From UHGV virus genome UHGV-0131300: 13,883 nt of DNA; one strand, given 5' to 3'. The position numbers and the translations under genes are program-made. Each line of letters starts with the position of its first letter. The first letter of the stretch is position 1. Below the pieces are notes generated by a model that saw nothing but the letters and a program-made list of their open reading frames with translations, searched no databases and had not been told where the DNA came from. Shown here one piece after another: positions 1,570-13,564 of the stretch. Source of the DNA: a virus.

Positions 1570-1664
1570 CTGAATAGATTGAGCCTAGCTCGACGGGGCG
1601 AAAAGCGGGAAGCCTTACCGCCTGGCTCAATCACAAAATAAGGCGCAGCGTAAAAGGTGACGCA

Positions 1665-4225: not shown

Positions 4226-4400
4226 CCAAAACCCCCAGCCGGGAAGCCGTTACAAGGATTCTCACGGGGCTGTAGTGACCGTTGAGCGCGTCGAGCATAA
4301 CCGAGTGACCTTTTACCGCGAGGGCTATCAGTCGCCATGTGTTCAGCCTTTGGAGAGATTCGTTAATGAGTTCGTGGAGGTGCGCCGTGATACTGAATGA
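4218..4400 (+). CDS. Small hypothetical protein (60 aa)
   Basis: ATG 4218 overlaps the end of the preceding gene (stop 4223..4225). Confidence 0.5.
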   Translation: MRNQNPQPGSRYKDSHGAVVTVERVEHNRVTFYREGYQSPCVQPLERFVNEFVEVRRDTE

Positions 4401-4840
4401 ACCTGCCGCCCAGAAAGAAGCCTTTAATCTGGCTGGCCTGTTAGCAAATGTTAACCCTTACAACCTGTCAAAACCTGACATTCATCGCCGCGCCGTTGCG
4501 ACAAATGACGACATTTTAGAGGCGTTTTCTGGGCTGAGAATTGGGCTGCGAATCCTAATAAATCCTAAGTTTTTTTCGCATTTCGTGACCAGTACGCGCG
4601 AGAAAGTTTTTTCTGACAACACTACGCCAGTGGAAAATTATTCCGCTGTCTTGAGTTTTCGGAGCATTACGCGCCCGTCTGGGGAGTTTTCGGACTATGT
4701 AAAAAAGGGCAGTACCTACAGGTCAGACCACCAGCAGGAAAATCAGTGTTATAGTCCCAGTGTTGCTGCAAAATCAGCAACCGGGCGTGGAAACCCGAAC
4801 ACACTCAGGGCGACACAGACGCCGAAAGCGTCTTTTTTTG
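4401..4840 (+). ncRNA. Candidate non-coding regulatory RNA or leader region ending in an intrinsic terminator
   Basis: No credible coding signal despite an open frame. Direct repeat gagttttcgga at 4653..4663 and 4684..4694; hairpin gttgctg/cagcaac at 4762..4781; terminator gacgc-cgaaa-gcgtc plus T7 at 4818..4839. Confidence 0.35.
4818..4839 (+). terminator. Rho-independent terminator inside the non-coding region
   Basis: gacgc (4818..4822), loop cgaaa, gcgtc (4828..4832), then ttttttt (4833..4839). Confidence 0.75.
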
Positions 4841-5028
4841 TGTCCGTTCACTACGCACATCAAATCAGCGGCCTCGTCCGTACTGTATCTATGGTGGCGT
4901 TAGTGGGGCTACGTTCGCGTAGGCCGGTTTCCTTTGTGTCCGGTATTTCCACCCCTGCTAACGTCACCGCCATTTCAGAGCGTGGAAACTCAGGCGGTGA
5001 CTCCTTAAACACAAAGGAGGCTGCCATC

Positions 5029-5217
5029 ATGGCTACTACCCCTACCCAAAATCCACAATTTATCTGGTTAATCGCAGCCGTTCGCCGCGACATGCCGACA
5101 ATTACCGCCAAAATCCATCATGTTGCTGCCGAAAGCGAGCGCGAAGCACGTCAAACTCTGGCACGAGATCACGTCTGTTTCTTTGCAGGCCGCATCCGTC
5201 TGGAGGTGGCAGCATGA
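5029..5217 (+). CDS. Small protein (62 aa), first gene of the replication operon; possibly Icd-like
   Basis: Strong SD aaggagg (5014..5020) 8 nt before ATG 5029. The upstream part of the 4339..5217 frame crosses a terminator and is rejected. The Icd-like family assignment is low confidence. Confidence 0.65.
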   Translation: MATTPTQNPQFIWLIAAVRRDMPTITAKIHHVAAESEREARQTLARDHVCFFAGRIRLEVAA

Positions 5218-5411
5218 GCCGTGAACTCACCTTAGAGCAGGCCGCAGAACGCGCGCACCAGACTGAAATAATTGCCCGTCTGGTTGAAGACTTCCCCCAT
5301 CACCTTGCCGATAGCGAAGTATCCGCAATCGCCACTCCGCTAAAGCGCCTTTCCGGTGACGTTACCGCATGGCTGATTGAAGAATTGGCAGAACGGGAGG
5401 GGAAGCGATGA
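5214..5411 (+). CDS. Small hypothetical protein (65 aa)
   Basis: ATGA start/stop overlap with the preceding ORF; ggagg SD at 5202..5206. Confidence 0.6.
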   Translation: MSRELTLEQAAERAHQTEIIARLVEDFPHHLADSEVSAIATPLKRLSGDVTAWLIEELAEREGKR

Positions 5412-5587
5412 AACAGGGACTAAGCGTTAGTGAAGTAATGTGCAGAATCCAACAGGCGCAGACCGTCCTCACCATGTGGCTTCACACCATGACCACCGAC
5501 GACGGGGAAGCGCCCGATATGGTGGATGCGGTGCTGACAATCTTAGACGGGCTGGCCGATGCGCTGGCAGTGGAGAGTGACAAATGA
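5408..5587 (+). CDS. Small hypothetical protein (59 aa), absent from the supplied ORF track; paralog of the next gene
   Basis: ATGA overlap at both ends (5408 and 5584). Translation MKQGLSVSEVMCRIQQAQTVLTMWLHT... shares the C-I---AQ-VL-MWL motif with the 5584..5805 product. Confidence 0.55.
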   Translation: MKQGLSVSEVMCRIQQAQTVLTMWLHTMTTDDGEAPDMVDAVLTILDGLADALAVESDK

Positions 5588-5805
5588 GCCAGTTACAACT
5601 GATTGATGCTGCCTGCCAGATTGAACCGGCACAGGCTGTTTTATCCATGTGGCTGGAGAGCACCAACAAAGACACTAGCCCCGACCTTCCGCGTCTTATC
5701 GGTTCAATCCTCACTTTGCTGCATGGCGTCCCGGAGGCAATGGAAGAAGCCGAAAGCAAGCTGGCTGACTATGTGATGCGTGAATATCGGGAGGGCAAAG
5801 CATGA
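5584..5805 (+). CDS. Small hypothetical protein (73 aa)
   Basis: ATGA overlaps on both sides; paralogous to the 5408..5587 product. Confidence 0.6.
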   Translation: MSQLQLIDAACQIEPAQAVLSMWLESTNKDTSPDLPRLIGSILTLLHGVPEAMEEAESKLADYVMREYREGKA

Positions 5806-9833: not shown

Positions 9834-10264
9834 CAGCACAAATTTCAGCATACGGGCGGCTGGTGGCAGATCCCCAGACCCGCACCACAACGAACGGTAA
9901 CAACATGGCTATGGCGCGGCTGGCGGTGTCTCTCCCCTGTAATGCGGCAGAGGCGGGAGAGTCAACCTTCTGGCTGGGCGTTATTGCTTTTGGGAAGCAG
10001 GCCGATGCGCTGGCGAAGCACCAGAAAGGCGACCTTGTGAGCGTGGCAGGCAATATGCAACTCAACCAGTGGACAGGGCAGGACGGCGGTACACAGCAGG
10101 GGTATCAGGTAGTAGCCGACAGTGTGATCAGCGCCAGAACGGTACGCCCCGGCGGGAAGGCAGGACAGCGGGGACAGGCAACGGACGCGCTGAGACGTGC
10201 GCAGCAGCCATCCCGTGATGAATACGACCAACGCCCACCATTCGACGATGAAACGCCATTCTGA
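9830..10264 (+). CDS. Single-stranded DNA-binding protein-like (OB fold with SSB-type acidic C-terminal tip)
   Basis: N-terminal region is alignable with bacterial SSB (GRLVADPQTRTTTNGNNMAMARLAV...FWLGVIAFGKQADALAKHQKGDLVSVAGNMQLNQWTGQDG). A Gly/Gln-rich linker ends in PPFDDETPF, compared with DFDDDIPF in E. coli SSB. Confidence 0.8.
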   Translation: MTAQISAYGRLVADPQTRTTTNGNNMAMARLAVSLPCNAAEAGESTFWLGVIAFGKQADALAKHQKGDLVSVAGNMQLNQWTGQDGGTQQGYQVVADSVISARTVRPGGKAGQRGQATDALRRAQQPSRDEYDQRPPFDDETPF

Positions 10265-10274
10265 GAGGGAAGAT

Positions 10275-10916
10275 ATGAGTACGCAACCCATCATTATTGA
10301 GTTCGGCAGCTATCGCTGGCCCAGACATCTTGCAATACATGAAGCAGGTCATGCGATAGCCGCATGGTTTTTCGGCATACAGGAGGTAGAAATTGCGTTA
10401 TCGGGTAATAACCGAGTGGCAAAAACCTACCTTAGCGGCGATGTTGATGAATGTGGAGCTGTCGCGGTATGGCACGCCAACTATCCACGGAATGTGGCTG
10501 AGGTTAAGTCTTACACCCTCTCGAATGATGACACCAGGTTACGTCTGATAGACCAGGTATGCCGGGCTATGGTTATCTCTCTGGCTGGTATCGTCGCGCA
10601 ATCACGCTATACGGAGGATGATATTGACGCACTGATGGAAACGTCCGGGAAAGCAGATATGAAAAATGTTCGTGATTTATCCGAGGTATACCGGGTAGCT
10701 GGTGGGGAGGACGCCGATATACAGCGAATATCCCTTTCCCGCGCTCAGGCGCTGATTACCCTGAAATGGTGGGATGTTATCGCGCTGGCGAAAATACTGG
10801 AGAACCGTAACCATATGCCCGCCAGAAACTTCCAGCGCATTATGGGCGATATCGACAAGCCTGTACCAAAGCCTCTGACGCTGGCTGAACTGGATGAATT
10901 GGTGGGTGAAGAATGA
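10275..10916 (+). CDS. HExxH zinc metallopeptidase-like protein (FtsH/M41-like HEAGHA motif), no AAA+ domain
   Basis: Motif HLAIHEAGHAIAAW near the N-terminus matches the FtsH protease-domain signature HEAGHA. gaggg SD before ATG 10275 (track start 10197 rejected). The protein is only 213 aa. Confidence 0.65.
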   Translation: MSTQPIIIEFGSYRWPRHLAIHEAGHAIAAWFFGIQEVEIALSGNNRVAKTYLSGDVDECGAVAVWHANYPRNVAEVKSYTLSNDDTRLRLIDQVCRAMVISLAGIVAQSRYTEDDIDALMETSGKADMKNVRDLSEVYRVAGGEDADIQRISLSRAQALITLKWWDVIALAKILENRNHMPARNFQRIMGDIDKPVPKPLTLAELDELVGEE

Positions 10917-11263
10917 AGCAATACATTCTGGCAGCCTGCCTGATCTCCTCTGCACCGGCACTATCTGCTATCCATTGTGGGGGCTTTACAATACAGCCAG
11001 ATCGTTATCGGACAACGATTAACGGCGATGTGGTTCATATTATTGATGCGCAATTTTACGGCGCGCCGCGAGACTTTAGCCAGGCCGCCATAAAGTTATT
11101 GCCTGATGCCATCACCACTACCGACAGGCAATACCGCCTGGAGACGCAGGGAGGCAATGCTTCGCTGGAGTTGATGACCAGAGAGCAACCGCCACGCGTG
11201 CTTAATCGTGAGCGCTGCGATTCCGGGCTAACAGGCTTTTACTGGTACTCGTCTGTGCCGTGA
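10913..11263 (+). CDS. Small secreted protein (Sec signal peptide)
   Basis: N-terminus MKQYILAACLISSAPALSA has the positive, hydrophobic and AxA pattern of a signal peptide. ATGA overlap with the peptidase gene. Confidence 0.6.
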   Translation: MKQYILAACLISSAPALSAIHCGGFTIQPDRYRTTINGDVVHIIDAQFYGAPRDFSQAAIKLLPDAITTTDRQYRLETQGGNASLELMTREQPPRVLNRERCDSGLTGFYWYSSVP

Positions 11264-11389: not shown

Positions 11390-11505
11390 GGTTCGCGCCA
11401 CTGGTTCGCAGTGCGCAAAATAGTGCGCAATTTACAGTAAAATACGCATATTATTTCGTATTCAATTTGCGCACCGTTCGCAGTTAATGCGCAGTAATTC
11501 GCAGG
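11390..11505. promoter_or_regulatory. Operator-like region: multiple TGCGCA palindromes and TTCGCAG repeats around an AT-rich inverted repeat
   Basis: TGCGCA at 11411..11416, 11424..11429, 11468..11473, 11488..11493. TTCGCAG at 11405..11411, 11477..11483, 11498..11504. Inverted repeat aatacg (11441..11446) / cgtatt (11456..11461) flanks catattattt. A TTGACA sits at 11302..11307. Confidence 0.5.
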
Positions 11506-11515
11506 AGGCCAGCCA

Positions 11516-11992
11516 GTGAGAGACAGAACGCGCAGCTATACCACCGACCTGCCCCGCATAGGGTTGCCATTCCTTTCGCACATGCGTAGCAGGCTGGCGG
11601 ATGCTGAACCGGGTACGCAGCTTTATACCCAGACCGAAAGCGGAACGTTGTATACCTTCCGGCAAGCCGACAGCTACGCCATGACAATCAACGGCGTGAC
11701 GCGGGCGATTCGCACCACAACCACACAGGCCGGGTATGGCGTGCGGGAATGGTACGTTTGTCCCCACTGTATGAAACGGGTGGCGAAGCTGTATATTGGC
11801 AAAAAAGATCATCCGTATGACTTCCCGAAGCCAAAGGGGATGCGCTGGGCTACGTTTGACAGGAAGCGGGCAGAATTATCAGTTATGGAGATGGCTTACT
11901 GGCAGGCATTCAGCCCGGTAGTGGGCAGAATCACGGGCGTTATTGAGCGTAAAGCAGGAAAAGCAGCCAGAGGCATTGGCCTGACTCTATAA
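11516..11992 (+). CDS. Hypothetical protein (158 aa) with one CPHC motif
   Basis: GTG start with AGGAGG SD at 11503..11508. Contains REWYVCPHCMKRVAKLY. No family assigned. Confidence 0.6.
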   Translation: MRDRTRSYTTDLPRIGLPFLSHMRSRLADAEPGTQLYTQTESGTLYTFRQADSYAMTINGVTRAIRTTTTQAGYGVREWYVCPHCMKRVAKLYIGKKDHPYDFPKPKGMRWATFDRKRAELSVMEMAYWQAFSPVVGRITGVIERKAGKAARGIGLTL

Positions 11993-11999
11993 AAGCAAA

Positions 12000-12016
12000 A
12001 CGCCCGCACGGGGCGT
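12000..12016. terminator. GC hairpin; T-rich tail is on the minus strand (possible bidirectional or minus-strand terminator)
   Basis: acgccc (12000..12005) / gggcgt (12011..12016). The plus strand has an A-tract upstream and no T-tract downstream; the minus strand has tttgctttta after the stem. Confidence 0.4.
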
Positions 12017-12223
12017 CAGAGAACGGGATAGACTTCTGCGACAATTTGCATTCGCCGCCAATATAGCAAGTCGTCCACATCAAGCAATAAACTATCACCG
12101 GGAGGGGGAGGCCAAATCTCTGCAATCCTGAGCCTTAAGGACTGCCCGCCCCATCGTTTTTTTATACCCGCGAAAAATGAAATTTAATCCGGGCGTGTTT
12201 CATCCTTCCAGAGGGTATGACGT

Positions 12224-12409
12224 ATGACACCACGCGAAATAGCCTTATTGACCATCGCCAAACTTGAGCACGGAGGCCACCAGCTTACACAGGCAGATCA
12301 ACGGGAGATAGAACGCTCAGTTAATGCCGATATAGCCCGGCGCGACAGGTTCCGCGAAATGATGCGAGCACCTGCCTACCAGTGGAAGAAGCCAGCGCCG
12401 CGCAGGTAG
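12224..12409 (+). CDS. Small hypothetical protein (61 aa), charged and helical-looking
   Basis: gaggg SD 8 nt before ATG 12224. Confidence 0.5.
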   Translation: MTPREIALLTIAKLEHGGHQLTQADQREIERSVNADIARRDRFREMMRAPAYQWKKPAPRR

Positions 12410-12529
12410 ATACGGGATTATTCCGCATGTAACTTATGCGTATTAAGCAAATTTCCTTTATTCACCTTTACAGAATTGTGAGTGCGTCAGTATCGTTATC
12501 CTTCCGATTCGCATTTATTCAGGATTTGC

Positions 12530-13072
12530 ATGTACCAGCTAAAGATAACCATCCGAGACAGCAAACCACCTATATGGCGGCGTGTGCTGGTTCCAGAGCA
12601 AATCCCCTTTAGTAAACTTCATGCCGTGATCCAGTTGGCTTTTGGCTGGAATGACGAACACCTGTATATGTTCGAGAAAGGGCGTAAAGGTGATCCCGGT
12701 AGCGAGTATCGCGTATGGGGTGAGGATGAAAGCATGGGTAATGCGGCAATCACACCACTATGGGCAGCGCTCCAGAATGATGGTGACAAGCTGGTTTACA
12801 CGTATGACTTTGGCGACTGGTGGGATTGCGTCATTGTGCTGGAGAAGCAAACACACGATACGAGCAATCAGCCCATTAGCTGCCTGCGTGGGAAAGGCAC
12901 CACCCCGGTGGAAAACTCAGGCGGCTTGCATGGTTACAATGAATTGCTATTACAGGCCAGAGAGTCTGATAATCCTGAGCAGGCCGAGATCCACAATTTC
13001 CTGATGCTGGATATTGAGCGCCGGGTTTACGACCTGAGCAGCATCAACGACAGATTGCAGGCTCTTAACTGA
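12530..13072 (+). CDS. pRiA4b ORF-3-like domain protein (180 aa)
   Basis: N-terminus MYQLKITIRDSKPPIWRRVLVPEQIPFSKLHAVIQLAFGWNDEHLYMF matches the characteristic start of the plasmid pRiA4b ORF-3-like family. Start moved from track GTG 12482 to ATG 12530, which has an agga SD. Confidence 0.65.
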   Translation: MYQLKITIRDSKPPIWRRVLVPEQIPFSKLHAVIQLAFGWNDEHLYMFEKGRKGDPGSEYRVWGEDESMGNAAITPLWAALQNDGDKLVYTYDFGDWWDCVIVLEKQTHDTSNQPISCLRGKGTTPVENSGGLHGYNELLLQARESDNPEQAEIHNFLMLDIERRVYDLSSINDRLQALN

Positions 13073-13424
13073 CCCGCATATATTCGCCTGATATTGCGTT
13101 ATCAGCGCCGCCAGTATCGCGCATAACAGCGCACTGACCGGGCAAACCGTAGCGCACGACCGTTGCGTTAGTCTCACCGCCGCGCCGTATCTGGCGCGAT
13201 TCATACACTGTCACCCGCTCAAGCAGTCCACCAGCAACCATGCTTTCCAGTGTGCGCCGGGTTGATTCGATCTGGTGGCGCTTATCGAACGACACCATGC
13301 CATGAAGCAGGTAGGCCACACCCGACACATCGAACGGCGGCGCACCAATCTCACCAGTCACCCATTCGAGGTTATCCGGTTCAAAGTAGCTAAGTATCTC
13401 TTTTTTGCGGCTGGTCATTCTCAT
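13065..13424 (-). CDS. Hypothetical protein (119 aa), convergent with and overlapping the 3' end of the preceding gene
   Basis: Minus-strand ORF MRMTSRKKEILSYFEPDNLEW...; its 3' end overlaps 12530..13072 by 8 bp. Last gene inside the element before the right-end repeats. Confidence 0.55.
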   Translation of the reverse strand: MRMTSRKKEILSYFEPDNLEWVTGEIGAPPFDVSGVAYLLHGMVSFDKRHQIESTRRTLESMVAGGLLERVTVYESRQIRRGGETNATVVRYGLPGQCAVMRDTGGADNAISGEYMRVS

Positions 13425-13544
13425 GGCTGGCAGGTTCCTTATTGTGGGATAGCGGTATCATACAATAAGGCGCAAAAGATAAGAGGCCAGAACAGCAAGC
13501 ATGAGAGCATAAAATGAGCAGCCAAAGACAGCACCTCAAAATAC

Positions 13545-13564
13545 CGTGTACACAAGGGTGTACC
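13545..13564. promoter_or_regulatory. Right-end copy of the TGTACA arm-type repeat pair
   Basis: cgtgtacacaagggtgtac (13545..13563) matches cgtgtacatagaggtgtac (229..247) at 16 of 19 positions, in the same orientation. Confidence 0.5.

Follow-up and report, generated by a model that had tools for sequence, protein, structure and literature searches.

Conserved genes and a putative single-gene cargo slot at the right end of a P4-related, satellite-like element of Escherichia coli

Introduction

Immune systems are reported from the 5′ or 3′ end of phage-inducible chromosomal islands (PICIs) and, in P4-like satellites, from a hotspot near cos (PMC11364771). Here we analyse positions 11,390–13,424 of UHGV-0131300, a viral genome record of 13,883 nt (this whole stretch of DNA is called the window below). 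The window represents an integrative, P4-related, satellite-like element of Escherichia coli that occupies the site between yicC and dinD. The stretch under study holds four open reading frames (ORFs), A to D, behind a dense operator-like region. In the original prediction, made from the letters of the sequence, it was suggested that these genes could be one uncharacterised multi-gene system, at a typical site for defence or addiction cargo. Comparison with related elements leads us to another account, to which we give a probability of about 60%: the stretch is the right end of the element, where A, B and D form a conserved backbone and C fills a cargo slot between the convergent genes B and D.

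The B/D junction would be a satellite cargo hotspot of the known kind. Like the P4 and PICI hotspots, it lies at a fixed point of a small integrative satellite, close to the att/int junction, with conserved backbone genes on either side. Its content varies among relatives and includes a known defence system (ShosTA, in related locus L030) as well as toxin–antitoxin pairs. Several differences can be observed. The flanks are B (or A) and D, and not psu and int as at the psu/cos-int hotspot of P4. The conserved gene D always stands between the slot and attP. The window element lacks sid, delta, psu, rpp and a recognisable cos, and the slots of E. coli elements are nearly monomorphic for C.

Gene C belongs to PF07929, a large family present on plasmids, insertion sequence (IS) elements and phages in many phyla, for which a structure has been solved and the function is unknown. 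A self-contained C cassette of ~630 bp, located in a slot that also takes ShosTA and toxin–antitoxin genes, makes the function of PF07929 directly testable. The analysis also delineates three backbone genes, all uncharacterised, and two conserved cis-elements in a family of satellite-like elements that is common in E. coli but poorly described. These genes and cis-elements are entry points to the regulation of the element and its use of a helper phage.

Results

Genes B and D bound a slot of variable content

A profile of D was used to scan one genome per species, followed by tblastn with all window proteins, and about 35 related loci (L numbers) were compared. B is usually the convergent neighbour of D, adjoining it in 24 of 32 related loci, and A lies upstream in about 13 loci (roughly a third). 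In more than 20 loci, spread over many genera, the interval is bounded by B (or A) and D. The interval can be almost empty: in L012 (Shimwellia), L022 (Yersinia), L024 and L028 (Symbiopectobacterium) the stop codons of B and D are 5–29 nt apart and there is no trace of C. B and D without C are also found in L033. Other arrangements are PerC-B-C-D without A (L002, L003, L037), A-C-D without B (the Klebsiella circle L034) and C without D (L040).

The filled slots differ in content. ShosT and ShosA are found in L030 (PADLOC, 4e-49 and 2e-100), a SocA/Panacea antitoxin (8e-18) with a partner gene next to C in L003 and L010, and a Mutator-family transposase next to C in L017. L029 contains a CHAD protein, L020 a DUF2280 protein with a TerS-motif protein, and L019, L023, L025 and L027 a protein of 146–170 aa. 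The original prediction placed defence or addiction cargo at the end of the element. A cargo position does exist there, with ShosTA and SocA/Panacea in relatives, but in the window only C behaves as cargo.

ShosTA was found in one locus only, and the record is titled Chryseobacterium, which is probably a mislabel or a contaminant. Two loci, L030 (labelled Chryseobacterium sp. 18061) and L024 (labelled Pseudomonas lundensis I31), come from assemblies named as non-Enterobacterales, and their copies of the element are of the typical enterobacterial kind. The L030 proteins are 76–94% identical to those of the window. Both copies probably reflect contamination or mislabelling rather than transfer.

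In E. coli MSB1_1D, the element occupies the same yicC–dinD site and C is missing, with a 15-nt internal fragment remaining, which indicates that C was deleted. In strain S43, C is a pseudogene. Alignment with the MSB1_1D slot sets the edges of the cassette (Table 1). It contains a promoter-like site (12467–12496) and C, whose coding sequence (CDS; 12530–13072) extends 8 nt past the edge into the 3′ end of D; the overlap between the two genes arises because the right edge of the cassette abuts the 3′ end of D.

The cassette is mosaic with respect to its flanks. Compared with L004 and L008, the B–C spacer and C are 97–99% identical, whereas B is 77–82% and D 88–92% identical. In the same pairs, the synonymous divergence (dS) is 0.05–0.09 for C and 0.30–0.54 for B and D. 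All three genes are under purifying selection, with ratios of non-synonymous to synonymous divergence (dN/dS) of 0.31–0.42 for B, 0.11–0.22 for C and 0.09–0.14 for D. On this comparative evidence, A, B and D appear to be conserved backbone genes and C alone appears to be cargo. The slot would hold one self-contained cassette, consisting of C and its own promoter-like site, and C would be exchanged among elements and stand outside the life cycle of its carrier.

These distributions bear directly on the proposal that A–D constitute a single uncharacterised defence or addiction system run from the dense operator region. The gene models themselves stand, since each of the four is listed as a CDS in the RefSeq annotation of the 100%-identical locus of E. 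coli ECONIH4. The four genes lie at an element end, where cargo is expected, and they occur together in at least five other species; the order A-B-C-D is shared by E. coli, three Enterobacter species and Kluyvera intermedia (L004, L008, L009, L011, L013). However, each gene has been lost independently in relatives, A is internally deleted in the window and fragmentary in L010 and L029, A and B are split by a spacer with a terminator-like hairpin, and C has its own promoter-like site and a history unlike that of its flanks. Homologs of A, B and D recur in related elements across many genera, a result that the original prediction had itself named as refuting it; its other ground for refutation, a lack of co-occurrence of the four genes elsewhere, does not apply. 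The distribution of the genes largely refutes a joint system, which we regard as very improbable.

Searches for defence functions agree with this. No defence-protein hidden Markov model (HMM) of PADLOC-DB v2, candidate families derived from defence islands included, matches A, B, C or D at E ≤ 1; the same library strongly matches the ShosT and ShosA genes in the L030 slot. The profile and structure searches proposed for each protein identified C (PF07929, PDB 2I1S), but A, B and D have no match in Pfam, NCBIfam or PADLOC, and PHROGs gave only phrog_7271, for B. A type II toxin–antitoxin pair was considered and rejected: C and D are convergent, A and B lie 230 nt apart, and no toxin or antitoxin domain of Pfam or NCBIfam is present.

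Gene C is a PF07929 protein with the features of a passenger

C had been described as a pRiA4b ORF-3-like protein, and this assignment is secure. The Pfam PRiA4_ORF3 profile matches it with 144.7 bits (E = 3e-42, cut-off 26.6) over profile positions 2–165 of 173. A phmmer search aligns residues 17–184 to residues 8–182 of MM3350 (PDB 2I1S; E = 4.4e-21). The gene lies where it was predicted, but the ATG at 12530 is the most likely start, giving a protein of 180 aa.

Like other members of the family, C is a stand-alone protein of ~180 aa on mobile DNA that comprises the full-length domain. It differs in belonging to an Enterobacterales subfamily that is set apart by a gap in identity: 58–98% within the subfamily, and at most 40% to all other members. 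All but one of the contexts examined for this subfamily lie inside the present element family. A Serratia homolog, 76% identical to C, has no D within 6 kb and adjoins a DUF2280 gene and a Phd/Fic toxin–antitoxin pair. The C homolog of L039 (62% identical) was dropped as evidence of antiquity, as its contig looks frameshift-ridden.

The distribution of C suggests an accessory passenger that is swapped among elements, a single-gene cargo of unknown function. By its position, C is a candidate single-gene effector in conflicts involving phages or mobile elements; the slot is the sole argument for any such role. Our literature search on PF07929 found neither a known function nor a tie to defence, and the missing PADLOC match likewise speaks against C as a defence gene. 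The full version of this idea is doubtful: here C would be a stand-alone effector against phages or mobile elements, spread as a cassette into the slot of an undescribed P4-related satellite family, with D, at the border of the slot, as an autoregulated winged-helix protein governing the element end through a 30-bp operator that is conserved across Enterobacterales.

Another explanation dispenses with defence. C could be a generic passenger of the IS1096 'TnpR' or ISAzba1 pRiA4_Orf3 type that serves the DNA transactions or regulation of its carrier, and the right end would then be devoted to element housekeeping. PF07929 genes are indeed found on 956 plasmids, inside an IS66 unit of Pseudomonas phage Marin and, as 'TnpR', beside TnpA in mycobacteriophage LouisV14. 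ISAzba1-group transposons carry them as well (PMC3942029). C itself stands beside the Mutator-family transposase of L017, and the defence database returns no match. This explanation fits poorly with the dispensability of C, which has been deleted or turned into a pseudogene in elements that seem intact in other respects, with the bona fide defence and toxin–antitoxin genes in the same slot of relatives, and with PF07929 having no known DNA-binding or catalytic motif. We consider it rather unlikely.

Gene D is preceded by a conserved palindrome

D is a convergent minus-strand gene of 119 aa, as had been predicted. In more than 20 Enterobacterales species, primase/AlpA/Icd elements end with D as the last gene before attR. 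Its family is small: only 90 representatives (50% identity) are found among 1.84 billion proteins. It comprises 537 clusters, of which nearly all source-named ones are from Enterobacterales, and it has no Pfam domain. D is nearly absent from phages, the exception being a 37%-identical gene beside an anti-repressor in a temperate Klebsiella phage.

The 47 nt before the ATG of D are conserved in all 28 sequences compared, from every genus, while beyond them the upstream DNA of different elements is unrelated. The conserved segment contains a near-perfect palindrome, TTATTGTGGGATAGCGGTATCATACAATAA, just upstream of the ribosome binding site (RBS), which overlaps a TATGAT hexamer resembling a −10 element. 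No other strong copy is present in the window. Half-sites read either TTATTGT or TTAATGT, and no compensatory changes accompany this variation. An RNA hairpin is disfavoured by this uncompensated variation, which argues for a protein operator.

Several weak indications concern the fold of D. The distant family member P0287 gives sub-threshold winged-helix hits (PaaX, MarR, TrmB and IclR; E 0.004–0.04) on the conserved segment, and another member has a C-terminal domain resembling T5orf172/GIY-YIG. The AlphaFold2 (AF2) model of D has the topology H-H-H-β hairpin, with low confidence (predicted local distance difference test score, pLDDT, of 51) from a shallow alignment, and is too poor for a fold search. 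Compared with PDB chains, D has no sequence similarity at E ≤ 10, either as a single sequence or as a profile. We take D to be a probable DNA-binding protein of the winged-helix type, dimeric and autoregulated. Its gene is read inward from attR and, in the excised circle, diverges from int across attP; the protein would repress its own promoter through the 30-bp palindrome. It may act in the regulation of the element or in recombination directionality, and a master regulator or a recombination directionality factor are both possible.

Alternatively, C and D could be a two-gene module, in which D, as a DNA-binding regulator or antitoxin-like partner, would control or neutralise the effector C, and the two would form an addiction or abortive-infection unit that is kept in decaying elements. 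The convergent 8-nt overlap is conserved in L004, L034 and L039. The two genes occur together in almost every one of the 381 E. coli genomes with B/D, are both old in L017, and have both stayed intact in strain E2863, where a decayed PerC-B-C-D remnant is left. Their wider distribution does not follow this pattern: D is found without C in at least 12 loci of other genera and in E. coli MSB1_1D, D is missing around the Serratia homolog of C, and PF07929 genes are common on plasmids, IS elements and phages devoid of D. The dS values of C and D are several-fold apart in the same element pairs. The genes are convergent rather than in an operon, and neither has a toxin or antitoxin domain. We consider a C–D unit unlikely, and prefer D as backbone and C as cargo.

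Several points weigh against this preference and the wider account. C is nearly fixed together with B and D inside E. coli (about 340–380 of 381 genomes), and the overlap of the C and D reading frames is conserved. In Klebsiella sp. L017 the dS values of C and D are 1.3 and 1.6, so that C is almost backbone-like in that clade and could cooperate with D. The winged-helix assignment depends on sub-threshold Pfam hits of one distant homolog and on a low-confidence model (pLDDT 51). The label 'satellite' is itself inferred, with helper phage, packaging site and mobilisation presumed.

Two further observations were made around D. D is not always terminal, as seven more genes lie between D and dinD in L004 (15452–19284; E. 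coli 2022CK-00450). They include one for a KilA-N protein and a second B-like ORF, and there may be a second cargo position here. In L019 (10443–10889, with equivalents in L023, L025 and L027), the 146–170-aa protein that fills the slot begins MSKSLSVTFR, and its gene follows D immediately in the same orientation. The protein matches phrog_949 at its N-terminus and has no Pfam match; its gene and D may share a transcript.

The window carries a deletion allele of gene A behind a conserved control region

A was predicted as a 158-aa protein with a CPHC motif. The length and the motif (residues 82–85) are correct for the window, but homologs have 189–203 aa and belong to a zinc-ribbon family. Protein and DNA alignments reveal a clean in-frame deletion of 135 nt (45 aa) in the window gene, with the junction at 11809/11810. 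The deleted part contains the nearly invariant CRxCWxLHYxSQS, which provides the second Cys pair of the CPHC...CRxC zinc ribbon. The allele is confined to its own lineage, P0121 and eight complete genomes, six of which are one strain series. Judged from the alignments, A has probably lost its function in the window.

The AF2 model of a full-length homolog (pLDDT 84) consists of a β-meander, a zinc ribbon and a long C-terminal helix, and has no structural neighbour in PDB or BFVD. A profile search with A against PDB also gave no match.

The dense operator-like region predicted ahead of the genes is real. Four of the seven TGCGCA palindromes of the window are located within 11412–11493, at 11412, 11424, 11468 and 11488, together with an 11-nt inverted repeat (11423–11433 and 11464–11474). 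Ten relatives, among them Erwinia and Symbiopectobacterium, retain the core of the region, AAATACGCATATTATTTCGTATTCA at 11440–11464, ahead of their A homologs, differing in one or two substitutions. The number of TGCGCA copies in relatives ranges from 0 to 8 per 260 nt, with distant relatives near zero. A would be a zinc-ribbon protein controlled by this conserved, TGCGCA-rich region, and probably inactivated in the window element.

Directly upstream of the A control region, L004 and L005 encode a protein (125 aa; L005 12551–12928) that starts with MKKNSQQSRSGWGGKRKGAGAPLGNTNAVKHG and has no counterpart in the window. Homologs are found in L014 and L020, and the proteins of the four loci have 125–136 aa. 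The GAPxGNxNAxKHG motif of the 125-aa protein gives a weak match to a small-terminase PHROG (E = 0.003). This gene with its TerS motif may be a packaging-related gene lost from the window element.

Gene B follows a spacer with conserved features

The A–B spacer is 230 nt long and starts with a GC-rich hairpin and T-run resembling a leftward terminator, the sequence of which is conserved in L004 and L005. This terminator-like hairpin suggests a putative short minus-strand transcript starting in the spacer; the positions concerned are 11999–12017 and 12130–12223. A small RNA or riboswitch in the spacer was rejected, as Rfam gave no match and extended folds were not significant.

The second part of the spacer travels with B. 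Most of the 384 E. coli matches start at query position 837, which is the first position of the conserved block upstream of B (Table 1), and the block accompanies B even in elements that lack A. It is 90–99% identical in L004, L005, L011, L013 and L037, and only 23% identical (with a 60-nt gap) in L008.

B was described as a charged protein of 61 aa, and about 36% of its residues are charged. It would be a small helical protein that closes the rightward gene array. Its match to phrog_7271 (E = 2e-6) is to a family of unknown function, and tblastn against 50,697 phage records gave no match. A relationship to the 'HGGxSTG' protein of L034 was rejected, since there is no similarity.

Table 1 Features of the right end and of the upstream part of the element (window coordinates).
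Feature	Position	Strand	Remarks
Regulatory region upstream of A	11390–11515		conserved
Gene A	11516–11992	+	158 aa; CPHC at residues 82–85
Terminator-like hairpin (GC-rich, T-run)	11999–12017	−	leftward; directly after A stop codon
Conserved block upstream of B	12100–12223	+	accompanies B
Gene B	12224–12409	+	61 aa; last backbone gene of rightward array
Cargo cassette	12435–13064	+	edges from MSB1_1D alignment
Gene C	12482 (GTG) or 12530 (ATG) to 13072	+	PF07929; pRiA4b ORF-3 / MM3350-like
Gene D	13065–13424	−	119 aa; backbone
Palindrome upstream of D	13439–13468		30 bp; putative operator
Integrase arm-like direct repeats	13546–13564 (13546/13558)		GTGTACA / GTGTACC, 12-nt spacing; attR side
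int-alpA RNA motif (RF02996)	1578–1644		between integrase gene and next ORF; Rfam 60.6 bits
a1b1 target	4749–4801		inside Icd/Ash-like ORF; above Rfam gathering score
isrK-like RNA	4762–4838		inside Icd/Ash-like ORF; above Rfam gathering score
C4 antisense RNA	4887–4974		inside Icd/Ash-like ORF; above Rfam gathering score

The element is related to P4 and has recognisable ends

The stretch under study is 100% identical to the chromosome of E. coli ECONIH4 and to seven other genomes, and the ECONIH4 element is flanked by yicC and dinD. The right end of the element family is present in 381–384 of 5,426 complete E. coli genomes (~7%). Nothing was found on a yicC–dinD island in a literature search.

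In the RefSeq annotation of the ECONIH4 locus, the upstream genes encode a tyrosine integrase, an AlpA-type helix-turn-helix (HTH) protein, an AntA/B antirepressor, a P4-family primase and a single-stranded DNA-binding protein (SSB). The Icd/Ash-like ORF (4339–5217) contains a Phage_ASH domain (E = 9e-24). By its composition, this gene set would be the early half of a P4-like satellite. The element shares with phage P4 an antisense RNA of the C4/CI type with a1b1 targets, an Ash-family domain, a P4-family primase, an AlpA-type HTH protein and a tyrosine integrase. It differs in the absence of sid, delta and psu and of a P2/P4 cos with up to 3 mismatches, and in A, B and D, which have no counterparts in P4. 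Under the P4-like satellite definition of SatelliteFinder, int, an AlpA-type regulator, Ash and the alpha primase are present; sid, delta, psu and a P2/P4 cos were not found in the ORFs scanned or the window. The region 4749–4974 within the Icd/Ash-like ORF is an RNA immunity module of the P1/P7/P4 type.

The searches for late genes and packaging sites were negative. None of sid, delta, psu and rpp was found in the element. The Psu and Ogr/Delta families of Pfam have no match in the ORFs scanned, which included the zinc-ribbon protein A and left out three small ORFs at 5214–5805. The window contains no lambda cosN with 0–1 mismatch, the counts being those expected by chance, and no match to the P2/P4 cos with up to 3 mismatches.

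Gram-negative PICIs of the EcCICFT073 type share the int–alpA–primase order with the element, and D is a suspected small winged-helix protein. The differences are the lack of a lambda cosN with up to 1 mismatch and the location of D at attR, not beside cos. A PICI of the Rpp/cos type was rejected, as lambda cosN is missing and neither D nor A has a PDB sequence match to Rpp. The crystal structure of RppC has been described (PMC9026076), and RppC is covered by this search if the structure was deposited.

The attR-proximal position ascribed to the four genes is borne out by dinD next door and by integrase arm-like repeats at both ends of the element. Repeats matching those on the attR side lie at 230/242/275, beside int. 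The GTGTACA motif also flanks attP in the circular Klebsiella form L034. Small circular Klebsiella and Raoultella records of 17–23 kb are excised forms of the same family, in which D and int are divergent across attP.

L034 (NZ_CP033626.1), recorded as a Klebsiella pneumoniae 'plasmid' of 22.9 kb, is a related element in its excised form, over-circularised in the assembly and with ~4.6 kb duplicated. Between PerC and A it has genes for tape measure and tail completion.

An ISSpu7 insertion is located between a 321-aa ORF and the AlpA-type gene in ECONIH4 (L001 3672–5282), and is absent from the corresponding part of the window (~2630–2745). This difference from ECONIH4 indicates that the window derives from a different strain of the same lineage.

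Upstream of the stretch, a 239-aa ORF (10197–10916) contains an HEAGH (HExxH) motif and gives weak matches to M50B and M41 peptidases (E about 0.01–0.2). It is followed by a 116-aa ORF (10913–11263) with a signal-peptide-like start, and the pair is conserved in L005 and L030.

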